Shown here: piece by piece, positions 17,422 through 39,057 of the stretch
How positions within the stretch are numbered: the first letter of the stretch is position 1
Layout of the letters: every line of letters begins with the position of its first letter
Source of the DNA: an uncultured Gammaproteobacteria bacterium
GTDB lineage: Bacteria; Patescibacteriota; Patescibacteriia; Magasanikbacterales; JBBTQS01
Direction: 5' to 3'
Length of the DNA: 64,000 nucleotides
NCBI GenBank assembly: GCA_964627525.1
Contig: CAZVIA010000003.1
Coordinates: forward strand, 21,367 to 85,366
The notes under the pieces: generated by a model
The model's database searches: none
Told to the model about the DNA's origin: nothing
The model's input: only the letters and a program-made list of their open reading frames with translations
Program-made: the position numbers and the translations under genes

Positions 17422-17492
17422 GTCATATAATAAGTTTTAATATCTTTATAAAAACACACTGCCCACGTTAATGAGCAGTGTGTGGTAAGAAT

Positions 17493-18014
17493 TCAATAAC
17501 GTTGTCTTTTTGGTTTAATACCTTTGAGATAATAATCAATCCTTTCTTTTTTCCACATTTTTTCAATATTAGCATCATCAGTTCTTGTGCCTGGATAAAC
17601 TCTATTTTTGCCTTTTTCTAAGGTTCTCTTTAATCCAAAACTTTTTGAATCAATATGTGCAATAGTAAGTTCATCAATCAGTTGATCTACTTTTTGTCTT
17701 GTGCTTTGATCTACCCCTTCTCTTTTGCGATCTATGCTATTAGATGTGTTTGGGTCATTACCATGTCCTTCACCTAATAATACTTTTAATTCATCTATGC
17801 TAATTGTTAAACCATGCTTGCTTTGTATTGTTTTACCAATTGCATACAAACAATCATATTTATTTAAACGCATGAAATAACCTTCTTTGTCCTTGAATAC
17901 GAATTTTACAAGGGTGTGATTTTCATCAACCTCTTGTTCAATATTATATTCTCTTTCTTCTCTGTATCGGGATCCTTGGTCATAATTATATCCATATTTT
18001 TTTGGTTCTGTCAC
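17493..18014 (-). CDS. hypothetical protein of 173 aa
   Basis: Clean ORF lying between repeat copies 2 and 3; no recognisable motif. Confidence 0.45.
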   Translation of the reverse strand: MTEPKKYGYNYDQGSRYREEREYNIEQEVDENHTLVKFVFKDKEGYFMRLNKYDCLYAIGKTIQSKHGLTISIDELKVLLGEGHGNDPNTSNSIDRKREGVDQSTRQKVDQLIDELTIAHIDSKSFGLKRTLEKGKNRVYPGTRTDDANIEKMWKKERIDYYLKGIKPKRQRY

Positions 18015-18204
18015 TACTTGCCACCCCTTTTTGTTGGTTAATGTTTGTTGAAATTTACCACCTAGTCTTTTCTGTGTTATTTTGATATTCGTAATTATAG
18101 TTTTTTTAATTTAAAATTAGCTATTTTTTTTGTATAAAAATATTTTGTTCGTGGTTATTGACAAAAAACTTGTTAAATGTTAAGTTGTTGTTCTATTAAA
18201 AACT

Positions 18205-19038: not shown

Positions 19039-19061
19039 AGGATGTTAGGATTGGGTTTTTT
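19024..19061 (+). repeat. 38-bp junction repeat, copy 3
   Basis: TGTTCACTATTGTGAAGGATGTTAGGATTGGGTTTTTT. Confidence 0.8.
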
Positions 19062-19125
19062 TAGATATTTTATAATTTCAGTCGGTATGGTAGTATAGAT
19101 TATATAAGTTTAATCAAATAAATAT

Positions 19126-19557
19126 ATGAATTTTCAAATAGAAAATTGTGGTTTTTGCCAATATAATAAAACCAAAAATACATTCAAAAAAATGAATTTT
19201 CAGCCAAGTGGAATTGAAGGTGGAGGTCAAAATAGCGCAGAAAGAGCTGGTTTTTGTAAAGATGGGAATAATCCAGAGACGTGCGAGACATGTAAAACAG
19301 AAAATGAAATTAAATTAATGGAAGCTCAAGCTGAAATTGATAATAGAGCAAAAATAGTGGACGCAGAAGCAGGTGAGTTAAGAGCACAAAGTATTAGGGC
19401 TACTGGTGAGCAAATGCATAGACAGATGGCAGATGATGCAGAAATGACTGCAAGGCAAATGGAGAGGTTTGGTTATGGAAAAGGTAAAGAAAGGTTAAAT
19501 ACATTTCATGACAAAAACGAAGAATTTTACGATCAAAGAGGTAGAAAAAAAGAATAA
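19126..19557 (+). CDS. hypothetical zinc-ribbon protein (CGFC...CETC) with a coiled-coil C-terminus, copy 1
   Basis: 143 aa with two CxxC pairs and an A/E/R-rich helical tail. Confidence 0.5.
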   Translation: MNFQIENCGFCQYNKTKNTFKKMNFQPSGIEGGGQNSAERAGFCKDGNNPETCETCKTENEIKLMEAQAEIDNRAKIVDAEAGELRAQSIRATGEQMHRQMADDAEMTARQMERFGYGKGKERLNTFHDKNEEFYDQRGRKKE

Positions 19558-19627
19558 TAGTTATATAAGGTTATTAAACAGAAGTTTTTTTGTTTGTGTT
19601 AATATAGTAAATATTTAATCAAAAACC

Positions 19628-20200
19628 ATGAGAGGAGAAAGAAGACCTGGAGAAGGTTCTAATGCGCGTGAGTTTAAAGCGCCCTCATCACTTTCTGAAG
19701 AAGATCATTATTCTACTTTGGGAGTTTCTAGAAATTCTAGCCCTGCTGAACTTAAAGCAGCTTATCGTGCGTTGGCACAAATCCATCATCCAGATAAAGG
19801 TGGTAATGAGGAAGATTTTAAACTTGTTGGTCAAGCTTTTGAAGTTCTTAGTGATCCAGGTCAGCGTGAGACATATGATCTTACTAAGTTTGCGCCTAGC
19901 AGTCCTGAACAACAAACATACGAAACAGGTGTTAGGCAGCCTACTGAAGAAGAAAAGAGAAGAATGGATGAGGAACTTGCCAAAGATAGAGCCAGAAGAG
20001 AAAAAGAGAGAAAAGAGAGAAAAGAAAAATGGAGAAAAGAACATCCAGAACTTGCAAGACAGCAAGATGAAATTGGGGCAGCTAAAAAAGAAGCAGTAAG
20101 CCAAGTAAAGGAAGATTTAGCCAAAGCAAAGGAAGATTTAGCAAAAATGAAAACTGATTTAAGAGCTAGGGCAGCTGAAATGAAAAGTAAACGGTTCTAA
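19628..20200 (+). CDS. J-domain (DnaJ-like) protein with a K/E-rich coiled-coil tail, copy 1
   Basis: DHYSTLGVSRNSSPAELKAAYRALAQIHHPDKGG...FKLVGQAFEVLSDPGQRETYD is a canonical J-domain with the HPD motif. Confidence 0.75.
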   Translation: MRGERRPGEGSNAREFKAPSSLSEEDHYSTLGVSRNSSPAELKAAYRALAQIHHPDKGGNEEDFKLVGQAFEVLSDPGQRETYDLTKFAPSSPEQQTYETGVRQPTEEEKRRMDEELAKDRARREKERKERKEKWRKEHPELARQQDEIGAAKKEAVSQVKEDLAKAKEDLAKMKTDLRARAAEMKSKRF

Positions 20201-20241
20201 TATTAACATTACCTATCTCAATTTTTACTTGAACTTAGTAG

Positions 20242-20279
20242 TGTTCACTATTGTGAAGGATGTTAGGATTGGGTTTTTT
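20242..20279 (+). repeat. 38-bp junction repeat, copy 4
   Basis: Identical to copy 3. Confidence 0.8.
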
Positions 20280-20343
20280 TAGATATTTTATAATTTCAGT
20301 CGGTATGGTAGTATAGATTATATAAGTTTAATCAAATAAATAT

Positions 20344-20775
20344 ATGAATTTTCAAATAGAAAATTGTGGTTTTTGCCAATATAATAAAACCAAAAATACA
20401 TTCAAAAAAATGAATTTTCAGCCAAGTGGAATTGAAGGTGGAGGTCAAAATAGCGCAGAAAGAGCTGGTTTTTGTAAAGATGGGAATAATCCAGAGACGT
20501 GCGAGACATGTAAAACAGAAAATGAAATTAAATTAATGGAAGCTCAAGCTGAAATTGATAATAGAGCAAAAATAGTGGACGCAGAAGCAGGTGAGTTAAG
20601 AGCACAAAGTATTAGGGCTACTGGTGAGCAAATGCATAGACAGATGGCAGATGATGCAGAAATGACTGCAAGGCAAATGGAGAGGTTTGGTTATGGAAAA
20701 GGTAAAGAAAGGTTAAATACATTTCATGACAAAAACGAAGAATTTTACGATCAAAGAGGTAGAAAAAAAGAATAA
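20344..20775 (+). CDS. hypothetical zinc-ribbon protein, copy 2 (identical)
   Basis: 100% identical duplicate. Confidence 0.5.
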   Translation: MNFQIENCGFCQYNKTKNTFKKMNFQPSGIEGGGQNSAERAGFCKDGNNPETCETCKTENEIKLMEAQAEIDNRAKIVDAEAGELRAQSIRATGEQMHRQMADDAEMTARQMERFGYGKGKERLNTFHDKNEEFYDQRGRKKE

Positions 20776-20845
20776 TAGTTATATAAGGTTATTAAACAGA
20801 AGTTTTTTTGTTTGTGTTAATATAGTAAATATTTAATCAAAAACC

Positions 20846-21418
20846 ATGAGAGGAGAAAGAAGACCTGGAGAAGGTTCTAATGCGCGTGAGTTTAAAGCGC
20901 CCTCATCACTTTCTGAAGAAGATCATTATTCTACTTTGGGAGTTTCTAGAAATTCTAGCCCTGCTGAACTTAAAGCAGCTTATCGTGCGTTGGCACAAAT
21001 CCATCATCCAGATAAAGGTGGTAATGAGGAAGATTTTAAACTTGTTGGTCAAGCTTTTGAAGTTCTTAGTGATCCAGGTCAGCGTGAGACATATGATCTT
21101 ACTAAGTTTGCGCCTAGCAGTCCTGAACAACAAACATACGAAACAGGTGTTAGGCAGCCTACTGAAGAAGAAAAGAGAAGAATGGATGAGGAACTTGCCA
21201 AAGATAGAGCCAGAAGAGAAAAAGAGAGAAAAGAGAGAAAAGAAAAATGGAGAAAAGAACATCCAGAACTTGCAAGACAGCAAGATGAAATTGGGGCAGC
21301 TAAAAAAGAAGCAGTAAGCCAAGTAAAGGAAGATTTAGCCAAAGCAAAGGAAGATTTAGCAAAAATGAAAACTGATTTAAGAGCTAGGGCAGCTGAAATG
21401 AAAAGTAAACGGTTCTAA
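20846..21418 (+). CDS. J-domain protein, copy 2 (identical)
   Basis: 100% identical duplicate. Confidence 0.75.
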   Translation: MRGERRPGEGSNAREFKAPSSLSEEDHYSTLGVSRNSSPAELKAAYRALAQIHHPDKGGNEEDFKLVGQAFEVLSDPGQRETYDLTKFAPSSPEQQTYETGVRQPTEEEKRRMDEELAKDRARREKERKERKEKWRKEHPELARQQDEIGAAKKEAVSQVKEDLAKAKEDLAKMKTDLRARAAEMKSKRF

Positions 21419-21459
21419 TATTAACATTACCTATCTCAATTTTTACTTGAACTTAGTAG

Positions 21460-21497
21460 TGTTCACTATTGTAGAGGATGTTAGAACTGGGTTTTAT
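21460..21497 (+). repeat. 38-bp junction repeat, copy 5 (variant TGTTCACTATTGTAGAGGATGTTAGAACTGGGTTTTAT)
   Basis: The palindrome is disrupted (GTAGA instead of GTGAA); this copy ends the duplicated block. Confidence 0.75.
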
Positions 21498-21539
21498 TTG
21501 ACTTGATTTAGTAAATATGCTAATTTCAATATAGATTAC

Positions 21540-21700
21540 AATTTAATATAAACGTATCCAGAGAGTAGAGATGTTAAGGGAATTGACCCAAAGCTCTACC
21601 CGCAACCTATTTGTTTAGGTGCGAAATTCAACCCTATTGGGATAGATACTAGGAATCACTGGATGACGTCGCCCTTAAGGTGACTTTTTATTTTAGTTAT
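21540..21700 (+). promoter_or_regulatory. structured GC-richer leader ending in an intrinsic terminator (riboswitch- or attenuator-like)
   Basis: Several local hairpins (GTAGAG...CTCTAC; CGCAACCT...AGGTGCG). A terminator GUCGCC-cuuaa-GGUGAC followed by TTTTTATTTT lies at about 21665-21700, immediately upstream of the ORF at 21711. Confidence 0.35.
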
Positions 21701-21710
21701 CAAGGTCATC

Positions 21711-21962
21711 TTGTGGGCGACATCATCAAAAAACAGCCTTGCATCAATTCCGATGCAAGGTGTTGTTTTTTGTAAAAAGCCCAAAAAGAGAGTGACTATG
21801 GCCTGGGAAGGAATGAGAAAGTGTGTTTTCTGTCGCAGTGCTTGGTGTAAGTGTGGAAATCTGAGAAGAGAAAGAGAAAGGGTAAAGGCTGGTGGGAAGA
21901 GAAATAAATCAAGAACCTACACCAACAAGACTCCTCGGCTAGGGATTGTGAGGGTAAACTAA
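21711..21962 (+). CDS. small Cys- and K/R-rich hypothetical protein of 83 aa
   Basis: ORF with FCKKPKK...CVFCRSAWCKCGN. Weak evidence; could be non-coding. Confidence 0.25.
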   Translation: MWATSSKNSLASIPMQGVVFCKKPKKRVTMAWEGMRKCVFCRSAWCKCGNLRRERERVKAGGKRNKSRTYTNKTPRLGIVRVN

Positions 21963-21977
21963 ATAAACAACACAAAC

Positions 21978-22018
21978 AAGAAAACCGTTGTGTATAACAC
22001 ATAGCGGTTTTTCTTTTA
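21978..22018 (+). terminator. rho-independent terminator
   Basis: ACCGUUGUGU-auaa-CACAUAGCGGU stem with G-U pairs, followed by TTTTTCTTTT. Confidence 0.5.
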
Positions 22019-22022
22019 AAAA

Positions 22023-22060
22023 ATGTTCACTATTGTGAAGGATGTTAGAACTGGGTTTTG
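22023..22060 (+). repeat. 38-bp junction repeat, copy 6
   Basis: TGTTCACTATTGTGAAGGATGTTAGAACTGGGTTTTGT; the last copy, abutting the ABC-transporter operon. Confidence 0.8.
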
Positions 22061-24711: not shown

Positions 24712-25560
24712 GTGTCGTCGACATGCGACAACAAATATAAATTTATGCTTGAAAAGGTATTTATTAAATTAAATTTGGATGAAAAACATACTAGGGTTTA
24801 CTTAACACTTTTTGAAGAGAGTGTTTCGACTGCTGGTAAATTATCAAAGAAGTTAAGTATTCCTCGTTCTACTTTGTATGGTTTGCTATATGATTTAAAT
24901 AAAAAAGGCTTGGTAATTCAAAGTGAAAAACAAGGAATAAAAGTATGGCAGGCTGAATCACCTGATAAGTTAAAACATTTAATCAATAATGAAATTAATA
25001 ATTTGGAAGATTTAAATTTGAACTTATCTACATTAATTACTGAATTGAAAAACAAGGAAAAACAAGATTTTGTTAGTCCTAAATTTAGCTATTTTGAAGG
25101 TCCTGATGCTTTAAGGCAAATGCTTAAAGATGTGTTATGTTATAGAAATATCGATACTATTGCTTTTTGGCCAATTAGTGAAATGATAAAAATATTAGGA
25201 AAAGATTTTTTTATATATTCTAATAAGGAAAGAATTAAGCGTAACATTTCTGCAAAAGTACTTTGGCCAAATGATAGGCAGGTGGATTTAAAAGATAATG
25301 TATTTTTAGGAGTGGGGAATGATTTTAAAAGAGAAATTAGAATTGCTCCCAAAAACATAGATTGTTCTATGGGATATTGGGCATATGAAAACAAAGCAGC
25401 TTTTTTGTCTTCAAAAAAAGAAAGCTTTGGTTTTATTGTTGAAAGTGTTGAATTAAAGCAGTTGTTAGAAACTCAATTTAATGTTTTGTGGGAATTATCA
25501 AAGTCTATAAAACCACAAAAAGCTCACACACAAAAATTTATTAATGAGCTGAACTTGTAA
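24712..25560 (+). CDS. TrmB-family-like HTH regulator, paralogue of 18205-19038; divergent from the ABC operon
   Basis: Same architecture and alignable residues (RVYLTLFE...STLYGLLYDLNKKGLV...PDKLKHLIN). The true start may be the internal Met at about 24745. Confidence 0.5.
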   Translation: MSSTCDNKYKFMLEKVFIKLNLDEKHTRVYLTLFEESVSTAGKLSKKLSIPRSTLYGLLYDLNKKGLVIQSEKQGIKVWQAESPDKLKHLINNEINNLEDLNLNLSTLITELKNKEKQDFVSPKFSYFEGPDALRQMLKDVLCYRNIDTIAFWPISEMIKILGKDFFIYSNKERIKRNISAKVLWPNDRQVDLKDNVFLGVGNDFKREIRIAPKNIDCSMGYWAYENKAAFLSSKKESFGFIVESVELKQLLETQFNVLWELSKSIKPQKAHTQKFINELNL

Positions 25561-25830
25561 ATAGTTCTAATTTCCACATAAGTTATTTCGATTATCCTTT
25601 AAGTTTACAAAAATGGTTTCCACTTTTGGATGCGCTCAGAACTATGAATTGAGGTAATTATAAAGATTTTTTCAAGGTGACTAACCTTTCAATTGAAGAA
25701 GTTTTTGTTTGATTATTTCTTTTAGACCTGCTTTTTCTAATTTTATTTTTTTGTTTGTAAGAGATTATACCTAAAATTTCTACTATGAATCCTATTAATG
25801 TTCCTGTGATCGATAATTTTTATATTAAAA

Positions 25831-26901
25831 TTAACTATTACCTTTTTTAATATTACAAGGTCTACACAAGAGTTGTGCATTTGAAAGCACTGTTCTACCC
25901 CCTTTACTCCACGGATCTACGTGATCCATAGAAAGCTCTTCAGTGTAAAAGTATTTATTACAAATTTTGCATTTATATTTGCCTTCATTGTTAGGCTTTT
26001 GTTTTTTTAAGAATTCTTTTTTATCATCAATAGAAAATAGTCGTTTATCATCAACACTAATATTTTTCACTATAGCTTGGATAATGTCTTCGATCTCCTG
26101 TGCCTTATTAGTCAACTTTGCATCATCGCTTTTTAAATATTTTTTGACTCTTAAATTAATTTCATCTTTATTCTTTTTCCATATTACTGAATCTTTGATA
26201 TATTTTCTGGCCAAGTTGAAATAAATATCCAACTGGCCATAACTGTTAAATATATTACTTATAAATTTAATGTATTTAGTAATATCTTTTTGATCAGTAA
26301 CAAACGATTCATTTTGGTTTTGACTTACATAATCATTTATATTAGCTGTGTCTTTTGGTAAATTTCTTAAGATCATTAGTAGTTTTAATATTTTATATTG
26401 ATTTTTTCCACGACTATTAGAGCCCAACACTTTTATGGCATCTCTGTCTTGTTTTGCGTATGTAGATAACCCTCTTAAATATTCACCATAAAAAAGACCA
26501 TTTAACACTTCGTAGTTAGATAAAGGTACGCCTAAGGTGTTTATTCTTCTAAAGATTTCTCTTTTCAACTCCTCCTTTCCTTCACAAATTATTATTGAGA
26601 GTTCGGTTTTATTTATTATTTCTTGAGTTTTTTTGTCTGTCTGTTTCCAAAGTTTTTCCTCGAATAGTATGTCATTTTCAATGAATTTTTTTATTGCTTC
26701 AATTCTTTGTTTTCCATCTAAAACTTCTAGTATGCCCTTTTTATTTTTCCAAAAGTAAAAAGCTGGCAATGGAATTCCTTTAACAATACTGTCTACAACC
26801 AATATTTGCTTATTAGTGTCGTAGACAATTTCCCTTTGAAGTTCAATATCACTAATAATTTTGCCATCCCTTACTTCCTCGTATAAGTGTTTTATGTTCA
26901 T
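25831..26901 (-). CDS. DUF262 (ParB/GmrS-like) N-terminal domain fused to a C-terminal HNH nuclease; GmrSD-like putative restriction endonuclease
   Basis: LEVLDGKQRIEAI, the DGQQR motif of DUF262, at the N-terminus. The C-terminal CKICNKY...DHVDPWSKGG...CRPCNIKKG is an HNH motif. Confidence 0.65.
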   Translation of the reverse strand: MNIKHLYEEVRDGKIISDIELQREIVYDTNKQILVVDSIVKGIPLPAFYFWKNKKGILEVLDGKQRIEAIKKFIENDILFEEKLWKQTDKKTQEIINKTELSIIICEGKEELKREIFRRINTLGVPLSNYEVLNGLFYGEYLRGLSTYAKQDRDAIKVLGSNSRGKNQYKILKLLMILRNLPKDTANINDYVSQNQNESFVTDQKDITKYIKFISNIFNSYGQLDIYFNLARKYIKDSVIWKKNKDEINLRVKKYLKSDDAKLTNKAQEIEDIIQAIVKNISVDDKRLFSIDDKKEFLKKQKPNNEGKYKCKICNKYFYTEELSMDHVDPWSKGGRTVLSNAQLLCRPCNIKKGNS

Positions 26902-27905
26902 ATTTTTGGATTTTTAAACAAGTCCTTGTTTTTTATTATTATTCTTTCAAAAGGTGCTTTAAATGGCTTTCCGTCTTTTTCAATCCATAGTGTCGCTTTG
27001 TCTCCTTTAAATCTAATGGTTTTTTCAACCTGCACACCTTTACCTATAATTTCAAATTGGTCAGGGTTATATTTTGTTAAAAATGTTATTGGAACTCCCA
27101 TCTCGCCTTTATAATCATATGGTATGTTTTTTGTTTTGTTGACATCAATTCCATTGTAATTATAGTAATTTGGATATTTCTCGGAGTCGTAAGATTCGGT
27201 CAATATCATTCTGTCGTGACGATACGATACATCTAGGTTTGTATACCATTTACATGCTCTAGGCACAGAACCTTCTGGGTTTTTTGAAAGTAGTAGAGTA
27301 TTATCAATTAAACGAAAGCCAGTTAACTGCTTGGCGTAACCAAGCCACATTTTGTCGTCTTTTATGTGACTAAAGATTTCTTTATATGTTATGGCTGTTA
27401 AGGGGCCAATGACTAAAAAATTCATTTTATTTTTAAACATTGTGTCAATGAATTCTCTAAATTGACTAAATGGCGGGTTTGTTATTACTAAGTCATATTT
27501 TGAATAATCAACATCCTGAAATTTAACACCTTTACCTGTTGCAGGATTATATCCGCTGGCAGAAATAGATGATATGTCATAAGTGTCAGCGTGAGCCACT
27601 AGAAATTTAACAAAATTACATTTAATCAAAGACAACTCTTTTTCTATTTTCTTTTTTGATGCTTTAATATTTATTTTTTTTATTGTTCCTCCGCTGTCTA
27701 GTAGATTTGATGGGGTGATGTAACCTTCTTCTTTGAAAACAATTTCTTCTTCATAACTTTCATCCCAATCACAAGGGCATAATATTCTTTTACTTTTTAG
27801 TTGCTCCTTATATAAAGAAACTTCTTTTGATATGTCTTCGTATAAAGTGTAGAATTCATCGTCCTTGGCCTTATTTGCTTTGTATAGTGATTTTTTAGTG
27901 CCCAT
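26898..27905 (-). CDS. EcoRI-methylase-family N6-adenine DNA methyltransferase
   Basis: Collinear with M.EcoRI as recalled: DEFYT, CPCDWDE, DLVITNPPFSQFREF, KMWLG, CKWYTNLDV, GVPITFLTKYNPDQFEII. Overlaps the downstream nuclease gene by 4 bp. Confidence 0.8.
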   Translation of the reverse strand: MGTKKSLYKANKAKDDEFYTLYEDISKEVSLYKEQLKSKRILCPCDWDESYEEEIVFKEEGYITPSNLLDSGGTIKKINIKASKKKIEKELSLIKCNFVKFLVAHADTYDISSISASGYNPATGKGVKFQDVDYSKYDLVITNPPFSQFREFIDTMFKNKMNFLVIGPLTAITYKEIFSHIKDDKMWLGYAKQLTGFRLIDNTLLLSKNPEGSVPRACKWYTNLDVSYRHDRMILTESYDSEKYPNYYNYNGIDVNKTKNIPYDYKGEMGVPITFLTKYNPDQFEIIGKGVQVEKTIRFKGDKATLWIEKDGKPFKAPFERIIIKNKDLFKNPKI

Positions 27906-27919
27906 ATAAATTTATTTTG

Positions 27920-28030
27920 GGCAAACAAAAAAGGGTGCCCGAGTTGCGAACACACCTTTCAGAATCCTTGCGGATCCCTACAAGCGGTTTTCGGGACACC
28001 CATCTCTACGCTCGTAGAGCGGGTGCCAAA
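27920..28030. other. GC-rich structured intergenic element of about 110 bp between divergent genes
   Basis: Nested complementary segments GGGUG-CCCGA...UCGGG-A-CACCC, and a CTCTAC-gctc-GTAGAG hairpin; composition is unlike the flanks. Confidence 0.3.
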
Positions 28031-28159
28031 AAAGACCCAAAATCCGCATTAAATTTTTAATTCTGAAAAATGTGTTCGCACTAATATGATAACAGAAATG
28101 TACATATAAAGTAAATGTGCATATTGATTTTTCTACCATTTTTGTTATGGTTTAGGTAA

Positions 28160-29296
28160 ATGAAAATTAAAATTATTATGGATATAACAGATATCGAAAA
28201 TGAATTGAATTCCTTGTATAAGAGTGCAAAGCGTTCTATTGAAAAAGGCTTGTCTTTTGATGTGTGCGTAGATATATACAAATATATAGATTTCATTGAT
28301 AAAAATGAAATATTGCATAAAATAGCAATTGATATTATATCTGTGCGTGAACCATTGTCGGATGAAAATAGGAATCTTGTGGAGAAAACAAAGTATTCGA
28401 TAGTAAAAAAATATGATTTTGCTAAAAAATTTATAGATAGAAGTAATGATTTAGAATTATTAAAACTTTCAAAACAGTTTGTTGAATATTCCGACGAGAG
28501 ACAAACAGGTCTTCCTAGGGAGTTTGATAGGTGTAGGGTAATGCAAAGTAGTCTACACTCAATCATGCGTAGACTTGAACAACTCAATTTAACAAATGAG
28601 ATTTTTCAAAATGAGAATTGGTTGTTTTTAAATAAAAAAATGGATGAGTGTTTTAAGTTGCTTTTTGAATCAGAGAGAAAATTATCCCTAGAAGCAATAC
28701 TAGAACCTTGGGGCGCGTTTATAAAATTAAATGATATGCACACAGGTATTGAAGAGTATAGAGTGGGCAAAAGAGAATACGATGATGGTTTTTATGCATC
28801 AAGTGTTTCTATAATCAGAGATGAGTTTGATGAATTAAGAAATAATATTAAAAGTAACTATAGGTGGGTATTTGTGGATGAGGATTGGGGCAGGATTTTA
28901 GACCTGGTTCAAAAAGAATTTGTAAAGAGATTAGAAAATCAAAAACTCTATTTTATTACTAAAAAAGGAAAAAAGTTTTTTTATTTAAACAAACTGATTA
29001 ATTTTGATTACAAAAACCCGCCTAGATATTTAAGGTCATTTATTGTTTTGTTTAAACTTCAACCATTTGGCGGTTCTGTGTCTTATGATGAGTGCCTATT
29101 AAAGGCAAAAGAATTAGGTTTTTCAGATATTTTAGAAAAAAAAGACTTGCAGAATGACTTAACAGTTTATTCATCCAGTCTCTACAGGAACACTGGTCTC
29201 CCAGCTAAAAATGAAAATAGTGTTTACTTGATTAAGACCGATAGGAAACAAAAAGGTTTTTTATTTAACAATTCCATCATCATAAATAACAACTAG
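28160..29296 (+). CDS. hypothetical protein of 378 aa on the mobile element
   Basis: Clean ORF; the antisense ORF 28081-28587 is rejected as non-coding. Confidence 0.5.
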   Translation: MKIKIIMDITDIENELNSLYKSAKRSIEKGLSFDVCVDIYKYIDFIDKNEILHKIAIDIISVREPLSDENRNLVEKTKYSIVKKYDFAKKFIDRSNDLELLKLSKQFVEYSDERQTGLPREFDRCRVMQSSLHSIMRRLEQLNLTNEIFQNENWLFLNKKMDECFKLLFESERKLSLEAILEPWGAFIKLNDMHTGIEEYRVGKREYDDGFYASSVSIIRDEFDELRNNIKSNYRWVFVDEDWGRILDLVQKEFVKRLENQKLYFITKKGKKFFYLNKLINFDYKNPPRYLRSFIVLFKLQPFGGSVSYDECLLKAKELGFSDILEKKDLQNDLTVYSSSLYRNTGLPAKNENSVYLIKTDRKQKGFLFNNSIIINNN

Positions 29297-29441
29297 TAAA
29301 GTCTTATTTACGCTAGTGGATGGCTATCAAAGTAGCTGTTTTTTTGTTTAATTTAAGCCTGTGTATGGGTGGTGTTAGTGTTTTGATAGCATAAGAAATA
29401 GGTTGGATACTAGAGATATTAATTATTAATATAATATTAAT

Positions 29442-29690
29442 ATGGAATATCTCAAAGAATCAGACCATTTCAAAACCACAGACATGTCTTTGGTTTCGAC
29501 ATTAATTTACTTAGGTTATCAAATAACTGCAATTGATGATCACAATCCATCAAAAGTGCATTTTGTAATAAAGCGAGATGGTAAAACAGATGAGGTGATT
29601 CAGTCTTACTGGAATAAAGAATTATCTGTTGAGCCACTTGCTTTTTTTAATTGTATTAAAGAAGTAAAAACAAGAATACGTAATACATAA
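29442..29690 (+). CDS. small hypothetical protein of 82 aa (DUF5659-like, phage-associated small protein)
   Basis: FKTTDMSLVSTLIYLGYQITAID...VHFVI pattern. Confidence 0.3.
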   Translation: MEYLKESDHFKTTDMSLVSTLIYLGYQITAIDDHNPSKVHFVIKRDGKTDEVIQSYWNKELSVEPLAFFNCIKEVKTRIRNT

Positions 29691-29856
29691 AGCATGTTAT
29701 CAGAAAAGTCAATTCAGAAATTTCAAGAACTGTACAAAAAACAGTTTGGGATTGGTTTGTCTGAAAAAGAATCTCAAGAAAAAGCAATACAATTACTTGA
29801 GTTATTTAAAAAAGTTTACAAGCCAATAACAATTAGAAAAATTAGATTAAAATTAT

Positions 29857-31146
29857 ATGACAATAAATAAATTTGAACCTTTGGGTTCAGAAGAGCTTGT
29901 AAAAATACTAGGCACCACAATAAAGCAAGATGAGACAAACAAAGTTGTAACTTTCTTATGCCAGCTTTCTGCCTATGGAGCTGACAATCAATTTAATATT
30001 TCATTCAATGCACCTAGTAGTACTGGTAAGAGTTTTATCCCAACTGAGGTTGCAAGGCTTTTTCCAAAAGAAGATGTAGTTAAAATAGCTTATTGTTCTC
30101 CAACAGCTTTTTTCCACGACGTTGGTAGAGCAGATGAGAAATCAAAAGGTAAAATAATTGTTGATTTATCAAGAAAAATAATGATCTTTTTAGATCAGCC
30201 ACACATGCAACTATTAGAAAGGTTGAGACCATTACTTTCACATGATGAAAAGGAAATAAATATAAAAATTACAGATAAATCTCAGAAGCAGGGTCTGAGA
30301 ACCAAAAACGTAATTATCAGAGGTTATCCGTCCGTGATTTTTTGTACCGCAGGGCTACGAATCGACGAGCAAGAAGCCACACGTTTTCTTTTGCTCAGTC
30401 CAGAAATTAATGAAGAAAAAATACGCCAATCTATTGAAGAAACAATAAAGAAGGAAGAGGACGATGATTATTACAGAAAAGTCCTTGAAGGTGATCCAGA
30501 CAGGGTGTTGCTAATGGAGCGAATAGTTGCAATAAAAGAAATGGGGATTGAGAATATAAAACTACACAATGCGAGTTCTCTAAAAGAACAATACTTGTCA
30601 AAAAATAAAAAATTACTCCCAAGACATCAAAGAGACATAAAGCGTTTTATTTCAATTGTTAAGTGTTTTGCTTTGCTTAATTGTTGGTGGAGAAGTGTTG
30701 AGGGTAAGACAATATTAACAAGCGAGGATGATGTTAAGGAGGCTTTCAAAATTTGGGATGTGCTTTCAATTAGTCAGAGTCATAATTTACCACCATATAT
30801 ATTCCGTTTCTATAACGACGTGCTGATTACTGCGTGGGATGAGTTAGGTCTTAAAAACAAAGATGAGATGTTGGTTGATATAGACTCGAAGGGATTAACA
30901 ATGAAGCAAATATTAGATAAACATTATAAAGTTTATGGAAGAATGTTGGATGCATATCAATTAAGAACACAAATACTTCCGATGCTGGAAACTTCTGGCT
31001 TGATAATTCGTGAAAAAGATGAAAGTGATAAGCGTAAAAATCTGATTTGCCCGAGTTCTATTTATTTTCAACAAAACAGTGTTGTACTGGCTGATAATGA
31101 GGAAGAGATTGAAGAATGTAATTCATTAGATAATATAGTGTTTTAA
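29857..31146 (+). CDS. P-loop NTPase, phage/plasmid replication-associated (primase-helicase or VirE-like), putative
   Basis: Walker A NAPSSTGKSF and Walker B IMIFLDQ; mobile-element context. Confidence 0.4.
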   Translation: MTINKFEPLGSEELVKILGTTIKQDETNKVVTFLCQLSAYGADNQFNISFNAPSSTGKSFIPTEVARLFPKEDVVKIAYCSPTAFFHDVGRADEKSKGKIIVDLSRKIMIFLDQPHMQLLERLRPLLSHDEKEINIKITDKSQKQGLRTKNVIIRGYPSVIFCTAGLRIDEQEATRFLLLSPEINEEKIRQSIEETIKKEEDDDYYRKVLEGDPDRVLLMERIVAIKEMGIENIKLHNASSLKEQYLSKNKKLLPRHQRDIKRFISIVKCFALLNCWWRSVEGKTILTSEDDVKEAFKIWDVLSISQSHNLPPYIFRFYNDVLITAWDELGLKNKDEMLVDIDSKGLTMKQILDKHYKVYGRMLDAYQLRTQILPMLETSGLIIREKDESDKRKNLICPSSIYFQQNSVVLADNEEEIEECNSLDNIVF

Positions 31147-31149
31147 AGG

Positions 31150-31758
31150 GTGGGGTGTATGAAAAAACAATCAAAAGAATTAACAAAGTATTTAGATAAA
31201 AACGAGTTGAAAAAGGTGAAAAAGAAATTAATACACGCTGACATAGAATTCACCCCTAGACACGTTCTTAGTGATTTTGATATCAAACTAGAGAAGTACG
31301 AGAAAAGCACGGGAAAACAAAAAATAAAGGCTAAAAAAGCACTTCTGGAGTCGTTAGAGAGGGCTGTTTTTGTTGTGGGTTTGGATAATCATTTTCCATT
31401 AACAGAAATAATAAGTTCTGATAGAAACAGGGGGTTGATGGTTGATTTTGCTGACAGTCTTGTTGAAGAATATAAATGTAAAACATCTTATGAAAAAGCA
31501 TTGGTTCACTTAGTGGTTGGGTCGTATGCTAAATATTTAGAGTATTCAAAGTTTTTTAATACATGTAGAAAAATTGAGTATTTAACAAAAGAAAAAGTTG
31601 ACTATTACTCCATGATAGCCAAAGAAGCAGATAGGGCTCATCGTAGTTTTATTTCAGCACTTACTACATTACAACAAATTAAATCTCCACCAATAAAAGT
31701 AAGTGTTAAAGCCAATACAGCTTTTGTTGCTGAGAATCAGCAATTGAATAAGAACTAA
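31150..31758 (+). CDS. hypothetical protein of 202 aa
   Basis: ORF with a GGGTGGGG SD. Confidence 0.4.
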   Translation: MGCMKKQSKELTKYLDKNELKKVKKKLIHADIEFTPRHVLSDFDIKLEKYEKSTGKQKIKAKKALLESLERAVFVVGLDNHFPLTEIISSDRNRGLMVDFADSLVEEYKCKTSYEKALVHLVVGSYAKYLEYSKFFNTCRKIEYLTKEKVDYYSMIAKEADRAHRSFISALTTLQQIKSPPIKVSVKANTAFVAENQQLNKN

Positions 31759-31759
31759 T

Positions 31760-32095
31760 ATGAAATCATTGTCTAACAATAATTCAGGAAAAAAATTATT
31801 AACTGATCAGTGTGAACAGATTAAGATTTCTGACGTTTTTAAACGTGTTAAAACAGGTTATATCAGGTGTTTGAAAGAAAAAATGGTGGTAAATGGTGGA
31901 AATATTAGTTTGAAAAAAAGTAGTGTAAACAATGGTGGGGTGCGTTATTGGTTCGCATGCCCCTTATGCGGTGTTAGATGTGGGATTTTGTACAAAAGTC
32001 CTTTAGGTGAAAATATTGGTTGTAGAAAGTGTTTAAATCTTGATTATAGATCTAGGAGATATAAAGGAATGATTGAAAATATAAAAATTAAGTAA
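31760..32095 (+). CDS. hypothetical zinc-ribbon protein of 111 aa
   Basis: CPLCGVRCG...CRKC. Confidence 0.4.
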   Translation: MKSLSNNNSGKKLLTDQCEQIKISDVFKRVKTGYIRCLKEKMVVNGGNISLKKSSVNNGGVRYWFACPLCGVRCGILYKSPLGENIGCRKCLNLDYRSRRYKGMIENIKIK

Positions 32096-32224
32096 TATAA
32101 TAAAAGTGCTTACCCAACTTATTAAATACACATGCCAGCTTGCTAATTGTAAAGGGTGGTTCTACCAGCAAGCGCTTTGTGTGTGAGTTGGGTAAGCTAG
32201 AACCATCCTTTTTAGATTTGTTTT

Positions 32225-33832
32225 ATGAAAAAAGATAATAGTAAAACTTATTTCCTTTATGCACGAAAAAGCTCAGAGTCAGAAGATAGACAAATGCAAA
32301 GTATTGAAGATCAAACAGAGAAATTGGAAGAGCTAGCCAAGTTAAAAGGATTAAAAATCAAAGACATATTTACAGAAGCAAGATCAGCCAAAAAACCAGA
32401 CAATAGACCTGCTTTTACTGAAATGCTTGATAGGTTGAGTAAAGGCGAAGCTGATGGTATTTTGTGTTGGAAAATAAATCGTCTTACAAGGAATCCTATT
32501 GATAGCGGTAAGTTAAGTTGGATGCTGCAACAAGGAATTATTAAATCAATTCAAACTTATGATAGGGAATATTTACCAACTGATAATGTGATTCTTTTTA
32601 ATGTTGAGAGTGGAATGGCTAATCAATATATTTTAGATTTGAGCAAAGATGTAAAAAGAGGAATGGAAAAAAGAATAAGAAGTGGTTGGAAAAATGGACA
32701 AGCTAATATTGGTTATTTGAACCATAGAGATCCAATAGAAGGTTTAAAAACAATTATTAAAGACCCCGATCGTTTTGGTTTGGTGAGAAAAATGTGGGAC
32801 ATGATGCTAACAGGAAATCATTCTGTTTCAGATATTTTAGATATAGCAAACAATAAGTGGGGTTTTCGCACGAAAAGAACAAGAAAAAAAGGTGGGACAC
32901 CATTATCAAAAAGTACTCTTTATAAAATATTCAATAGTCAGTTTTATGCTGGGATTATTGAGCATAAAGAAGAAGTGATCATTGGTAAACATGATTCAAT
33001 GGTTACATTGGATGAATTTGACCGTGTTCAAGAATTACTAGGCAAAAAAGGGAAGCCAAGACCTAAAACACATAAGTTTCCATATACAGGCACAATAAGA
33101 TGTGGTGGTTGTGGTGCAATGATTACAGCAACAAAGAAAAGGAAGTATATAAAAGTTGATAATTGTTATAGGGAATATGTTTATTATCACTGCACAAAAC
33201 AAAGAAAGTATGTTAAATGCAATCAACCAAGTTTGAAAGTTGAAGAGTTGGAAGAACAAATAGATAAACAACTACAAAGTATTACTATTTTGCCAGAATT
33301 TAGAGATTGGGCTTTAGAAGCTCTTAATGAAATGAATGATCAAGAGATTCTTGATAGAGGTAAGATATATGAATCACAACATAAAACATTAGTACAAACA
33401 CAAAGAGAATTGGATAATCTAACTAAGATGAGATATAGAGATCTTATAGATGATGAAATGTATGTAAAAGAAAAAATAGATTTACAAAATAAAATTACAA
33501 AACTAGAAGTTTCGTTAAGAGATACAGAATCAAGAGCGAAAGAGTGGTTAGAATTAACTGAGAAGACTTTTGATTTTGCAACTTATGCAAGAGTTCATTT
33601 TAAAAACGGAGATTTAGAGACAAAAAAACAAATCCTTAGAACTATTGGAACTGAATACACACTAAGGGACAAAGTATTGGAAATTAAGCCAAAAGAATGG
33701 TTAGTGCCTATTAAAGAGGGTTATCCAGCACTTGAAGAAAAATATTACGCATTAGAACTGGATAAAACCCCTATAAATAAAGAACAAAACAAGGCTTTTG
33801 CCTTGCTTCGTTCACAATGGTTCGGGGACTAG
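32225..33832 (+). CDS. large serine recombinase (phage-integrase type)
   Basis: N-terminal resolvase catalytic domain YARKSSESEDRQMQSIEDQ...RLTRN, a recombinase domain, a Cys4 zinc ribbon (CGGCGAM...HCTKQ) and a coiled-coil tail. Confidence 0.85.
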   Translation: MKKDNSKTYFLYARKSSESEDRQMQSIEDQTEKLEELAKLKGLKIKDIFTEARSAKKPDNRPAFTEMLDRLSKGEADGILCWKINRLTRNPIDSGKLSWMLQQGIIKSIQTYDREYLPTDNVILFNVESGMANQYILDLSKDVKRGMEKRIRSGWKNGQANIGYLNHRDPIEGLKTIIKDPDRFGLVRKMWDMMLTGNHSVSDILDIANNKWGFRTKRTRKKGGTPLSKSTLYKIFNSQFYAGIIEHKEEVIIGKHDSMVTLDEFDRVQELLGKKGKPRPKTHKFPYTGTIRCGGCGAMITATKKRKYIKVDNCYREYVYYHCTKQRKYVKCNQPSLKVEELEEQIDKQLQSITILPEFRDWALEALNEMNDQEILDRGKIYESQHKTLVQTQRELDNLTKMRYRDLIDDEMYVKEKIDLQNKITKLEVSLRDTESRAKEWLELTEKTFDFATYARVHFKNGDLETKKQILRTIGTEYTLRDKVLEIKPKEWLVPIKEGYPALEEKYYALELDKTPINKEQNKAFALLRSQWFGD

Positions 33833-33891
33833 GATTTGAACCTAGATTGGCGGTACCAGAAACCGCAGTCCTACCATTAGACGATCCCCGA
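33818..33891 (-). tRNA. tRNA-Gln (anticodon CUG)
   Basis: Cloverleaf with acceptor TCGGGGA/TCCCCGA, a 3-bp D stem, anticodon loop TTCTGGT, T-arm CTAGG-TTCAAAT-CCTAG, and an encoded CCA. Overlaps the recombinase 3' end by 15 nt. Confidence 0.85.
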
Positions 33892-36480: not shown

Positions 36481-39057
36481 TTAAGTAGTAGGTTCAGTAG
36501 GTTGAGCCTCACCCAATGTATCTGAAACACCAAGAGCAGAACGATCCATTACTTCTTCTGCAACAATTTTTCTGTCACGACCATATTTTATTCGTGACAA
36601 TTTAATTATACTTTTTGCATACTCTTCATTTTCTGGAAGAGGTGGTTCTGTTGCCATATTAAATGGTTTGGCAGCAGTGTTATCTATCAACAATTTAACG
36701 TATGCAGTAAATTTTTCTACATTAATTAAATCATAAGCATTAAACACAGGTGCAAATTCTTTTGCTAAAATTTCTGAATCATCAGGTCCAATTCTAAATG
36801 CACACATAGTACCAGCATTACCTAGCACAGCGTCACGAACAGAAGAATCTCCTTTGGTAGAATCTGAAAGCTGTCCCATATATTGGTGAGCCATTATTAA
36901 ATTCAAACGATATTTACGAGCTTCAGACAAAATTGTTGAAATTGAATCTGTAATAAAGTTTTGAAATTCATCAATATATAAATAAAAATCATGGCGTTTG
37001 TCTTCAGAAATATCAGCACGACCAAGCGCAGCCATTTGTAATTTGGCAACAATAATCAAACCTAACAGCTTTGCATTAACTTCACCAGTTGTACCTTTGG
37101 CCAAATTAATTAACAAAATCTTTTTCTTATCCATTATTTCGCGAAAATCAAAACCAGATTTATTTTGTCCAATAATATTTCTCATCATTTCATTTCCAAC
37201 AAAACGCCCAACTTTTGAAATCAAATAACCAAGTGTTTCTGATTTGTGGAAGTCAGAAGTTTTTGCCATTTCTTTTTCCCAAAAAGCACGCACAACAGGA
37301 TCTTTAACTTTTTTAACCCAACCTTGTGCAAAAGCATCATCTGAAAACATTCTTGGAATTTCAGCAATTGTTCCAGGTTCTTTGATATCCGCCATTAATG
37401 TAAGCATCACATTTCTCATTTGATGTTCAAAAATAGGGCCAATCATTTCAGCTCCAAAAAGTTTGTAAAAAATTGAAATCATTTCCTGCACAACAAAATC
37501 TTTTTGGTCTTCTGTTTTTGCTTCAAGCATATTCAAACCAACAGGACGATCCATGTCTGAAGGATTGAAAATAATTACATCATCTTTTCTTTCTTCTGGA
37601 ATATTAGCTAAAACATGCATTACCAAATCTCCATGAGGATCTAACACACAAACACCTTCGCCATTTTTAACATCTTGAATTATCATGTTTTCCATGTACA
37701 CAGATTTTCCAGAACCAGACTTACCAATAATGTACATGTGACGACGACGATCTCCACGTTTAATTCGTACAGGAGTTTTTTCATTTCTATATAAAGCTTT
37801 ACCCAAAAGCAAGCCTTCTTCTGGCATGTTTGAAGGTGGGGGAGCTTTACGCGCAGACAACCAATTAATATTTGGAGTTTCAGTTGAAGGCAAAGGCAAA
37901 TGCCACATGCTTGTAATTTCTTCTGTATTTAAAATTATGGTTTTATTATCATGAAAAGCTCGATAAATAAAATCTTCTATTAAATGTCCTTGACCTCGCG
38001 GAGCTAAAGCTGAAAAAGAATTTCCGTATTGATAATTATTAAATTGTGAAAATGCATTTAATAAAGAATCTAAGTGTTGGCGCGCAGTTGTGTCATTATC
38101 TGTAGCAACAACAATTCTAATGTTTACATCTAAGCCAGCTTTTGAAGACTTAGCTTCAATTCTTTTTACAATCTCTTCTTCAGTTGCATTCATTCTAAAT
38201 GAATCTGGTGTTGATTGCATTTGCTGCTGCTGATCTTTTTGCCCAGTACCCAAAGCTTGTCCAAGAGCATTTCCAGCACTACTGCTTCCAGCTCCACCTC
38301 CCATTAATCCCGCATGCTTTTGTCCTTTGTATCTTCCTTTTTGCATTTTCTTTGAAATCATGGAAGTTTGTGACCGCCATTTTTTCTTAGAACTTCTTAT
38401 CACAAACTGAATTGCTGCACCTTCTTCTTTTGCTAATTTGCTCAAGGGATTTGTTAGGCCAGACAAAGGATCGCTTTCAAGTTCTTTGTATGTTTTTAAT
38501 GTGTGTGAAAAATGTTTTTTAAAAACCAAATACGCACCAATAATTGAACTGTCTTTTTTGAAAAAATTATAATCCTCGGTTTCATCAATTTGTGCATTAG
38601 GATATTGTGCAAGAATTTGTTGTGTTAAAAATTGTTGCAGTTTATTTGGCACAACAATATAAAAAGAAATCAAACCTTTGTTCATCACCATTTCAAAACT
38701 AATGTGATCTGTTCTTCCACGCAACCATGTCATAAACCCTCTTTGTGCGCGCAAACCACCAATTGTTGCAAACAAAGTTTCAGCAACAGCAATATCTTGA
38801 CGTATTCCATCAATTGAAACCTCTTCTTGTTTGTCTTTTTCAGCTTTTTCTTTTGGAATGCGAACAAGCAAAGTTTTCATGTTCAAACTTACGTGTTTGC
38901 GAAATTTTTGTTTAAGAACAGAACGTAAAATAAACAAAGATCCAACACCTGCCAAAATGCTAGCAATTCCAATAATTAATGAGAATATTAAAACTTCAGT
39001 ACTTGTTCCACTGCTCGCATAATTAGCTTGAGTGGTTAGTGTTAATTGTAAAAACAT
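36481..39057 (-). CDS. VirB4/TrbE-like (DUF87 P-loop) type IV secretion / DNA-translocation ATPase
   Basis: Two N-terminal TM helices; Walker A IIGKSGSGKS at about aa 440; Walker B LYIDEFQNF; RKYRLNLIMAHQ resembles the RKxN...ATQ motif. Confidence 0.5.
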   Translation of the reverse strand: MFLQLTLTTQANYASSGTSTEVLIFSLIIGIASILAGVGSLFILRSVLKQKFRKHVSLNMKTLLVRIPKEKAEKDKQEEVSIDGIRQDIAVAETLFATIGGLRAQRGFMTWLRGRTDHISFEMVMNKGLISFYIVVPNKLQQFLTQQILAQYPNAQIDETEDYNFFKKDSSIIGAYLVFKKHFSHTLKTYKELESDPLSGLTNPLSKLAKEEGAAIQFVIRSSKKKWRSQTSMISKKMQKGRYKGQKHAGLMGGGAGSSSAGNALGQALGTGQKDQQQQMQSTPDSFRMNATEEEIVKRIEAKSSKAGLDVNIRIVVATDNDTTARQHLDSLLNAFSQFNNYQYGNSFSALAPRGQGHLIEDFIYRAFHDNKTIILNTEEITSMWHLPLPSTETPNINWLSARKAPPPSNMPEEGLLLGKALYRNEKTPVRIKRGDRRRHMYIIGKSGSGKSVYMENMIIQDVKNGEGVCVLDPHGDLVMHVLANIPEERKDDVIIFNPSDMDRPVGLNMLEAKTEDQKDFVVQEMISIFYKLFGAEMIGPIFEHQMRNVMLTLMADIKEPGTIAEIPRMFSDDAFAQGWVKKVKDPVVRAFWEKEMAKTSDFHKSETLGYLISKVGRFVGNEMMRNIIGQNKSGFDFREIMDKKKILLINLAKGTTGEVNAKLLGLIIVAKLQMAALGRADISEDKRHDFYLYIDEFQNFITDSISTILSEARKYRLNLIMAHQYMGQLSDSTKGDSSVRDAVLGNAGTMCAFRIGPDDSEILAKEFAPVFNAYDLINVEKFTAYVKLLIDNTAAKPFNMATEPPLPENEEYAKSIIKLSRIKYGRDRKIVAEEVMDRSALGVSDTLGEAQPTEPTT

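Follow-up and report, generated by a model that had tools for sequence, protein, structure and literature searches.

By what event did a gene for a large serine recombinase (LSR) come to run into the 3' end of an intact tRNA gene, and how far does the DNA that arrived with it reach? This question is raised by a stretch of 64,000 nt (contig CAZVIA010000003.1 of assembly GCA_964627525.1, positions 21,367 to 85,366), which was analyzed as a whole and is called the window here. Its DNA is low in GC (about 33%). The LSR gene (32225–33832, plus strand) overlaps tRNA-Gln(CUG) (33818–33891, minus strand) by 15 nt, as an earlier note on this DNA had pointed out, and ARAGORN, Rfam and the translation of the open reading frame (ORF) confirmed this arrangement. 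Our analysis makes it very probable that positions 25614–33822 are an integrated plasmid-like element of about 8.2 kb in a Patescibacteria chromosome, placed there by an LSR that has the attachment site of the element (attP) within its own ORF.

The integrated form of the LSR comprises 535 amino acids (aa), of which residues 1–532 are native and the last three (FGD) stem from the antisense of the tRNA; 543 aa are predicted for the free form. The protein harbors a catalytic domain (Pfam Resolvase PF00239, 1.4e-20, residues 10–154), a Recombinase domain (PF07508, 3.3e-8, residues 185–273) and a zinc ribbon (Zn_ribbon_recom PF13408, 2.5e-9, residues 286–350), and all three stay in one ORF after integration. 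It matched the PHROG 'integrase' family phrog_95 (1.3e-68) and, weakly, XisF and CcrB/C in NCBIfam. The motif with the serine nucleophile, YARKSSESEDRQ, is conserved, and R14 and S16 are nearly invariant among 34 homologues. Its domains place the enzyme among the large serine recombinases. It retains all family-invariant residues, and every ORF of the element is intact. The search for homologues of the LSR retrieved 3575 proteins at E≤1e-20. More than 100 homologues showed 57–62% identity, and those with a named source come almost exclusively from Patescibacteria. Identity to integrases of deposited phages and plasmids was at most 28%. IMG/VR contained no close relative when searched with the single protein, the family alignment or the DNA pattern of the attP arms, and the match L098 from this database (42% identity) has no tRNA. 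No description of this integrase family was found in the full-text literature, which does not prove that none exists.

Read in antisense, the 15 nt of the overlap (33818–33832, TGGTTCGGGGACTAG) correspond to the 3' end of the tRNA. In the alignment of 34 LSR homologues, Trp532, whose codon TGG is the antisense of CCA, was invariant (34/34). After it come four variable residues and then D-S-N-[PLQ]. This pattern corresponds to the acceptor, T-stem and T-loop (GGTTCGAATCC) of a tRNA when read antisense in the LSR frame, with TGG first. The tails were classified among the 120 best homologues only: the T-loop antisense signature was present at a fixed offset in 75 of them, 32 had a stop within four codons, like FGD and the stop in the window, and 7 had a different, mutually related tail, which we call the free tail. 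tRNA-antisense tails were thus present in at least 107 of the 120 proteins. Since the Trp codon is invariant and the ORFs run in the same frame into the tRNA antisense, we concluded that the overlap is not due to chance.

On the DNA level, TGG as the antisense of the tRNA CCA was confirmed for five further loci (L093, L096, L101, L102 and L104). The LSR of L093 is 82% identical and lies at tRNA-Gln(CTG) in a syntenic dnaX neighborhood, the LSRs of L096 and L102 lie at tRNA-Gln(TTG), that of L104 at tRNA-Ile, and that of L101 at a tRNA-like 3' end missed by ARAGORN. L093, L096, L102 and L104 count as independent cases of this integrase at a tRNA 3' end, and cargo and host differ among them. The LSR ORF of L104 crosses the entire antisense of tRNA-Ile(TAT) at 11585–11677. 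The uncalled tRNA-like 3' end that adjoins the LSR in L101 (11606–11690, …GGTTCGAATCCGACCCCGGGAGCCA) may belong to an intron-containing or fragmented tRNA. L093 (1–11677), which represents the closest related genome, carries a larger element (>10 kb) at the same tRNA-Gln site. The replication module of this element differs, with a DnaG zinc-ribbon primase and a DnaB-like AAA_25 helicase; the element further encodes ParB and another serine recombinase (445 aa).

The tRNA-Gln gene, which served as the chromosomal target (attB), is intact and has its CCA encoded (ARAGORN, anticodon ctg; Rfam tRNA match of 58.5 bits at 33821–33891). It lies downstream of dnaX, and the dnaX/tRNA-Gln synteny is conserved across Patescibacteria. 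The closest genomes by DnaX are metagenome-assembled genomes of Patescibacteria with about 39% identity, e.g., Magasanikiibacteriota. Because it is found downstream of dnaX in about 25 of 39 such loci, tRNA-Gln can be regarded as a conserved chromosomal landmark. A recombinase behind the dnaX-proximal tRNA-Gln was present in only three of the loci (L016, L018 and L021), which have distant LSRs with ORFs likewise entering the tRNA. In L021 (9297–14352) the distant LSR (26% identity) is at the same dnaX-proximal tRNA-Gln with its ORF extending 61 nt into the tRNA, and is part of an inovirus-like prophage with an HUH Rep-like protein of 259 aa, a Zot-like P-loop protein of 238 aa and small hydrophobic ORFs. 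This prophage and the element of the window have a small protein of about 60 aa in common.

Where does the element end on the left side? The earlier note had taken the overlap as the classic signature of integration into a tRNA 3' end, with the tRNA gene reconstituted, and expected a direct repeat of the tRNA 3' segment at the far end. No second copy of the 25-nt tRNA 3' end with up to three mismatches was detected in the window, no piece of 12–24 nt from the last 45 nt of the tRNA was repeated with 0–4 mismatches (none for 12 nt, up to four for 24 nt), and five related loci likewise had no long repeat of the tRNA 3' end. The integration itself was supported by our data. The classic signature was not: no tRNA half is carried by the element, there is no displaced tRNA fragment, and only five tRNA bases are part of a repeat that does not exceed 7 bp. 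The 15-nt overlap results from the position of attP inside the integrase ORF and not from a tRNA 3' half carried by the element.

The 7-bp common core AATGGTT is located at 33816–33822 on the right side (attR, plus strand) and in identical form at 25612–25618 on the left side (attL, plus strand). The TGG of attL (25614–25616) lies 54 nt past the stop codon of the gene for a TrmB-family regulator. From there, positions 25614–25652 (plus strand) read in the LSR frame as the displaced last 11 LSR codons and the stop (W-FPLLDALRTMN), which form the P' arm of attP. AGAAC, which is conserved and encodes Arg-Thr, follows exactly 24 nt after the TGG (25638–25642), and the in-frame stop is at 25650–25652. 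Joining the left part of attR to the right part of attL keeps the LSR frame (…LLRSQW followed by FPLLDALRTMN and the stop). The left boundary had been proposed for either 25561–25830 or 27906–28160. The first interval harbors attL (25612–25652), and the second contains neither a core repeat nor a remnant of the tail. With attL at this position, a methyltransferase-nuclease gene pair to its right is cargo inside the element.

The restoration of the frame also works in two related integrated elements, L101 and L102. At the far left of both, past their restriction/defense genes, about 100 nt are homologous, and each of these stretches opens with a copy of its own attR core (TGGCTCC in L101, ACTGGCTGCG in L102). 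In the LSR frame these stretches begin with WLRIVNNVRTII... and WLRVVNNVRTII..., and in full they encode WLRIVNNVRTIIERQTGYIYIPDLREYTNT and WLRVVNNVRTIIQQQNECIYIPDLRIYVSI, each followed by a stop. These peptides are the C-terminal tails of the intact family members P0046 and P0077. We concluded that attP lies inside the LSR ORF and that the last codons are moved to the far end. The DNA of the two tails differs at 4/8/16 first, second and third codon positions, with 11 synonymous codon changes. Differences mainly at third positions imply that the tail is a translated peptide under selection at the protein level. The tail of the window is homologous to both attL peptides and to the native tails of P0046, P0077 and P0069 (FPLLDALRTMN versus LPILDAFRM... 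in P0069). When about 109 loci were searched for the tail motif in six frames, the motif preceded by W was detected only at these attL sites.

In the three elements attL and attR are identical over 7–10 bp only, and the dyad symmetry is weak. The identity blocks of the three pairs (window, L101 and L102) intersect on TGGYT; the crossover should therefore fall into the antisense of the five 3'-terminal tRNA bases, and CCA must already be encoded by the target gene. For the window we infer a crossover at one of the dinucleotides within TGGTT, and likewise the extent of the att sites. The predicted attP consists of 33776–33820 joined to 25617–25660 (junction ...GCCTTGCTTCGTTCACAATGGTTTCCACTTTTGGATGCGCTCAGAACTATGAATTGA...), the predicted attB of the tRNA-Gln 3' end joined to the reverse complement of 25570–25613 (junction ...CTAGTCCCCGAACCATTTTTGTAAACTTAAAGGATAATCG...). 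Other candidates for att sites were rejected. A single 14-nt match to the tRNA end at 15588 is unrelated. An inverted copy of the P arm as attL gave no convincing match in the window by local alignment or ungapped scans. Two further matches, one of 11 identical nt in L093 and one of 10/11 nt at 22030 of the window, are part of a host intergenic repeat, TGTTCACTATTGTGAAGGATGTTAG.

Downstream of the tRNA, the last approximately 12 codons of the LSR gene also contain a predicted intrinsic terminator for the tRNA (33782–33813, minus strand), a hairpin with a T-run that starts 4 nt after CCA. The terminator scan found 14 pairs at 33813–33782. Over eight family members 91% of the cells were paired, compensatory changes were seen in 4/7 pairs, and the covariation score was reached by 0/500 shuffles. 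As the element displaces the original downstream region of the tRNA, the hairpin plausibly restores termination of tRNA transcription.

Between attL and the LSR gene the element carries cargo and core genes, and the gene types named in the earlier note (an NTPase, a small DUF protein, a zinc-ribbon protein and the methyltransferase-nuclease pair) were all recovered with Pfam, PADLOC and the ORF list. The nuclease gene (25831–26901, minus strand) encodes a restriction endonuclease with GmrSD_N (DUF262, 5.3e-15) and a C-terminal HNH domain (3.1e-12), which matched PADLOC REase_II over its full length (7.7e-28). The adjacent gene (26898–27905, minus strand) encodes an EcoRI-type N6-adenine DNA methyltransferase (Pfam EcoRI_methylase 3.3e-68; PADLOC MTase_II 5.8e-64). 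Its stop overlaps the start of the nuclease gene by 4 nt (26898–26901), so that both form one operon. On the basis of these matches the two proteins are a predicted Type II restriction-modification (R-M) pair, and the operon is probably a defense or addiction module. Defense cargo is found at the same position in L101 (an R-M fusion), L102 (Z1 and C5 methylase) and L110 (MmeI-like). An orphan ORF of 378 aa (28160–29296, plus strand) stands where related elements have their large first ORF and had no match in Pfam, PHROG, NCBIfam or PADLOC. Its homologues are its own truncated copy P0333 (100% identity, residues 1–261) and four weak matches in 1.8 billion representatives, all confined to the C-terminal 120 aa or so.

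The core genes follow on the plus strand. An 82-aa DUF5659 protein (29442–29690; Pfam 6.5e-10) has its gene at the same position in L096, L101, L102, L104, L110 and L111, and a conserved protein of 58 aa (29694–29870) was found by tblastn/tblastx in L093 (56%), L096, L101, L102, L104 and L021. DUF5659 and the protein of about 60 aa are the most conserved accessory genes of the element family. The next gene (29857–31146) encodes an AAA+ helicase of 429 aa with a C-terminal winged helix. It is a short form without the Toprim primase domain and is 61% identical to the C-terminal 400 aa of a 744-aa Toprim fusion in L096; among 2895 homologues both long and short forms are common. Walker A (SSTGKS, residues 54–59) and Walker B (IFLDQP, 110–115) were invariant in 25 homologues. 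The AlphaFold model has a pLDDT of 76.8, and the top 24 helicase matches of Foldseek in the PDB were all MCM subunits (E 8e-8 to 1e-5, TM about 0.4–0.48). Residues 360–409 gave a weak match to a MarR-type winged helix-turn-helix, and a length of 429 aa leaves no room for a full MCM N-terminal domain. According to the model, the protein is an MCM-like replicative helicase. It is followed by an ORF of 199 aa (31159–31758), called as a gene in all same-strain assemblies and without match in Pfam, PHROG or NCBIfam, and by the gene for a zinc-ribbon protein of 111 aa (31760–32095) with a CPLC...CRKC motif, which is 41% identical over 63 aa to part of a 195-aa ORF before the integrase in L096. Among the PHROGs the element matched only HNH nuclease, methyltransferase and integrase families; virion genes are lacking. 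The cargo, which had been described as phage- or plasmid-like, thus looks plasmid-like and not phage-like, and integrative plasmid-like element describes the whole best.

An intact free tail is present in P0046, P0077, P0069, L110 and L111. In L110 and L111 the LSR with this tail has no adjoining tRNA, the order of the core genes is the same, and both loci appear to represent the un-integrated state. At L112 (203–8756) the LSR ends in a tail of the free type, and behind it lie, in this order, genes for PD-(D/E)XK and OLD-like Toprim proteins, an rve transposase and host-like glycosyltransferases. In the model that we propose, attP would lie inside the 3' end of the integrase gene of a free, presumably circular form. 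The integrase would pair attP with the 3' terminus of the tRNA gene, and strand exchange would take place at a dinucleotide of TGGYT, which is tRNA positions 72–76 (...N-N-CCA) read in antisense. The tRNA body would stay encoded by the host, with the element supplying at most the last few bases and a new terminator. By this the integrase would lose its native C-terminal tail to attL, 8.2 kb away, and gain three tRNA-antisense codons. The MCM-like helicase, DUF5659 and the 58-aa protein would serve as the maintenance/replication core of the free form, and the Type II R-M operon would be cargo between attL and these core genes. It is conceivable, though in our estimate rather unlikely, that attP within the ORF acts as a directionality or commitment switch. 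Only the free form would then make the full-length integrase with its tail of about 10–30 residues, and this form alone would be competent for attP x attB recombination, while the integrated form would end in tRNA-antisense junk and be inactive, unstable or prone to excision. If this is true, the element records its own state without a separate directionality factor.

Several observations weigh against the integration of a mobile element between 25614 and 33822. The attL of the window rests on a 7-bp core, the exact spacing and a peptide of 11 residues with modest similarity, the P and P' arms have weak dyad symmetry only, and attL was not found in L093, L096 and L104 within the 10 kb examined. 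Relatives have not kept the host synteny on the TrmB side, and attB is therefore reconstructed and not observed: metagenome scan, homologue search and contig look-ups revealed no empty site by TrmB synteny, and the tRNA-Gln/dnaX side is not adjacent to TrmB in relatives. Twelve same-strain contigs carrying the flanking DnaX or TrmB protein (L081–L092; JGI, ENA and Logan assemblies) were retrieved by exact protein look-up. They are 99.8–100% identical to the window with the site occupied or cut off, and neither an empty attB nor a circular junction was found for this strain, including these 12 contigs. No terminal overlap indicating circularity was found for L110 and L111 (L110 contig minus the first 480 nt). 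L112 has a free-type tail, and host-like genes are about 8 kb away; this locus may be a tandem or secondary-site insertion and not a free episome. Finally, two features are missing from the copy in the window, the HTH_17 gene that most relatives have and the Toprim domain found in long helicases. The last points would also fit an element of the same origin whose copy in the window has become fixed and can no longer excise or replicate, and which persists as an immobile remnant or domesticated island through R-M addiction and by supplying the tRNA terminator. This is a real possibility, although we consider it doubtful. The same-strain contigs stem from samples of several projects and are all identical, with no empty site and no polymorphism. 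The excisionase-like HTH_17 gene is present in L096, L101, L102 and L110, the displaced tail is short (11 aa versus about 30), and the GC content of the element is indistinguishable from that of the host. However, HTH_17 is likewise absent from L104 and L111, the helicase without Toprim is a common natural variant and not a one-off truncation, and low-abundance junctions are rarely recovered by metagenome assemblies. Intact ORFs, an integrase with every family-invariant residue, and the preserved frame and stop of the attL tail also speak against a remnant.

Other readings question the extent or the nature of the element. If it ended at 27906–28160, only 28160–33822 would be mobile and the R-M pair would belong to the host or to a separate, older island. 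The 255-bp gap indeed holds an unusual structured sequence rich in GC, the R-M pair is encoded on the opposite strand, and R-M systems are often mobile on their own. Nevertheless this shorter element is very unlikely, as the in-frame tail remnant is at 25614 and not in the gap, the orthologous trmB loci L097 and L106 lack the R-M pair, and L101, L102 and L110 have defense genes at the same position, inside the mapped attL. We assign an equally low probability to a prophage or a helper-packaged phage satellite: the match to phrog_95 and the inovirus-like prophage of L021, with HUH Rep and Zot-like ATPase beside a distant LSR at the same tRNA, are opposed by the lack of any capsid, terminase, portal, tail, Zot or coat-like gene among the 9 ORFs, by the lack of an IMG/VR relative, and by best GenBank phage matches of ≤28% identity. 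That the recombinase is a chromosomal invertase or resolvase, overlapping the tRNA by chance, might be suspected from the compact genomes of the candidate phyla radiation (CPR), in which overlaps are common, and from the annotation of some homologues by JGI as 'DNA invertase Pin-like'. This explanation retains practically no probability and appears already refuted by the comparative data. The enzyme has the full large-serine-recombinase architecture, the same-frame overlap recurs in more than 100 homologues at different tRNAs, and no invertible segments with inverted flanking sites were seen in the window. The earlier note had named a conserved chromosomal invertase, with the same genes at tRNA-Gln and no empty-site variant, as the finding that would speak against integration. 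Instead, in about 20 relatives tRNA-Gln comes after dnaX and no recombinase gene follows it, and homologous recombinases are found at tRNA-Gln in other genomes, with cargo that varies between copies. The integrated plasmid-like element with attP in the LSR ORF remains the reading that we favor.

Two further RNA structures were predicted within the element. A conserved structured leader lies upstream of the LSR start (32108–32200, plus strand) with the outer stem GCTTACCCAACT/AGTTGGGTAAGC, a minimum free energy (MFE) of -40.9 kcal/mol and z = -3.84. Homologous leaders are present in L096, L101 and L110 (about 9868–10000), with nine covarying pairs among the four sequences. An alternative, mutually exclusive pairing of AAAGGG.GG.CTG..CAG with CCAGACCGTCCCTTTAAG beside the start codon seems possible. 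The leader is thereby a candidate for a switch that controls integrase expression at the level of translation. Directly upstream of the methyltransferase start, about 130 nt of GC-rich sequence (27915–28045, minus strand) form a candidate structured leader or small RNA (MFE -58.2 kcal/mol; z = -5.45 for the minus strand versus z = -2.83 for the plus strand). The segment ends with a terminator-like hairpin and U6 (27953–27935), 10–30 nt before the methyltransferase start, and might control the R-M operon as an attenuator or as a small RNA. It had no Rfam match and no homologue in the other loci examined. Its interpretation as a known RNA, as a displaced tRNA piece or as an HTH_17 ORF was rejected; the 53-aa ORF in it looks non-coding.

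Outside the element, the left flank is formed by the TrmB-family regulator (24745–25560, plus strand; Pfam TrmB). Its orthologues in L097 and L106 (69% and 51% identity) have kept the same divergent NMT1-type ABC transporter operon and not the R-M pair, which is consistent with TrmB and the ABC transporter being a conserved host module that marks the left flank. On the other side, an 858-aa homologue of VirD4/TrwB-like coupling proteins (36481–39057, minus strand; DUF8128, T4SS-DNA_transf, TrwB_AAD_bind) is a conserved dnaX neighbor in L001, L005, L007 and L093 (52–69% identity), whether the element is present or not. A tandem duplication of 1218 bp with 98–100% identity (19126–21501) spans a 143-aa ORF and a DnaJ-domain ORF of 190 aa. 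The unit is single-copy in other same-strain assemblies (L086–L091), and the two counts reflect either a true polymorphism in copy number or a difference between assemblies. The intergenic repeat TGTTCACTATTGTGAAGGATGTTAG(GATTGGGTTTTTT) of 25–40 nt has six plus-strand copies (17152, 17384, 19024, 20242, 21460 and 22024) within 5 kb (17152–22048), mostly just 3' of plus-strand genes, and a related copy at 1606–1645 of L093. With its dyad TTCAC..GTGAA it may function as an operator or a terminator; it is not an att site.

To our knowledge, few mobile elements have been delimited so far in CPR/Patescibacteria, and one of them is now defined with coordinates. The integrase represents a very large uncharacterized clade of serine integrases with several thousand homologues (E≤1e-20), mostly from CPR bacteria. 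The common integration logic of this clade appears to comprise the tRNA CCA end as target, attP within the integrase gene, and a coding sequence that replaces the tRNA terminator. Predictable attB sites, i.e., tRNA genes encoding CCA, and a short attP make these enzymes candidate tools for stable gene insertion in Patescibacteria, and the clade adds candidate orthogonal serine integrases for synthetic biology.

With the LSRs of phages and mobile elements (phiC31, Bxb1, A118, SPbeta SprA, CcrAB and XisF) the enzyme shares the architecture of Resolvase, Recombinase and zinc-ribbon domains. Its short common core is compatible with a crossover of 2 bp and the absence of long repeats. Characterized LSRs usually target protein-coding genes. 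The family described here differs from them by attP in its own ORF, by the tRNA CCA end as target, and by a coding sequence that doubles as tRNA terminator. An attP in a coding sequence and a C-terminus altered on integration are also features of the integration-dependent immunity of mycobacteriophages. There, attP reportedly lies in the repressor gene, a tyrosine integrase acts, and a degradation tag is lost, which alters how the repressor behaves (Broussard et al. are said to have described this in 2013). In the mycobacteriophage system, however, the split gene is that of the repressor and the effect was demonstrated, while here the integrase gene is split and an effect on the enzyme is hypothetical.

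Among elements at tRNA genes, the tycheposons of Prochlorococcus likewise combine an integrase, a primase/helicase module and variable cargo in a streamlined genome, and a minority of them use large serine recombinases (bioRxiv 10.1101/2020.12.28.424599). They are flanked by partial tRNAs and have mostly tyrosine recombinases; the likeness is one of function. Islands of the P4/Islander type also have the integrase beside the tRNA 3' end, a tRNA that stays functional and the cargo distal to it (PMC4383910), whereas the element of the window has no tyrosine recombinase and no displaced tRNA fragment (≥15 nt) at the far end. Parallels in integration logic are also found in the archaeal 'suicidal' integrases of the SSV1/pTN3/pT26-2 type, which have the att site in the integrase gene, a tRNA target and small plasmid- or virus-like carriers (PMC8371274). 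SSV-type integration separates part of the integrase ORF from the rest, and integrases that disrupt their own gene were described in a review as exclusive to Archaea and tyrosine recombinases (PMC8371274). In the SSV type a tyrosine recombinase (Phage_integr_3) is split into non-functional N- and C-terminal parts. The enzyme described here is a bacterial serine recombinase; no more than the final 11 to about 30 codons of its gene are displaced, which leaves catalytic, recombinase and zinc-ribbon domains together. If the proposed switch were true, it would be the bacterial serine-recombinase counterpart of these archaeal integrases. Own-gene disruption by a bacterial serine recombinase would broaden the concept beyond Archaea and offer a testable idea on the control of directionality.

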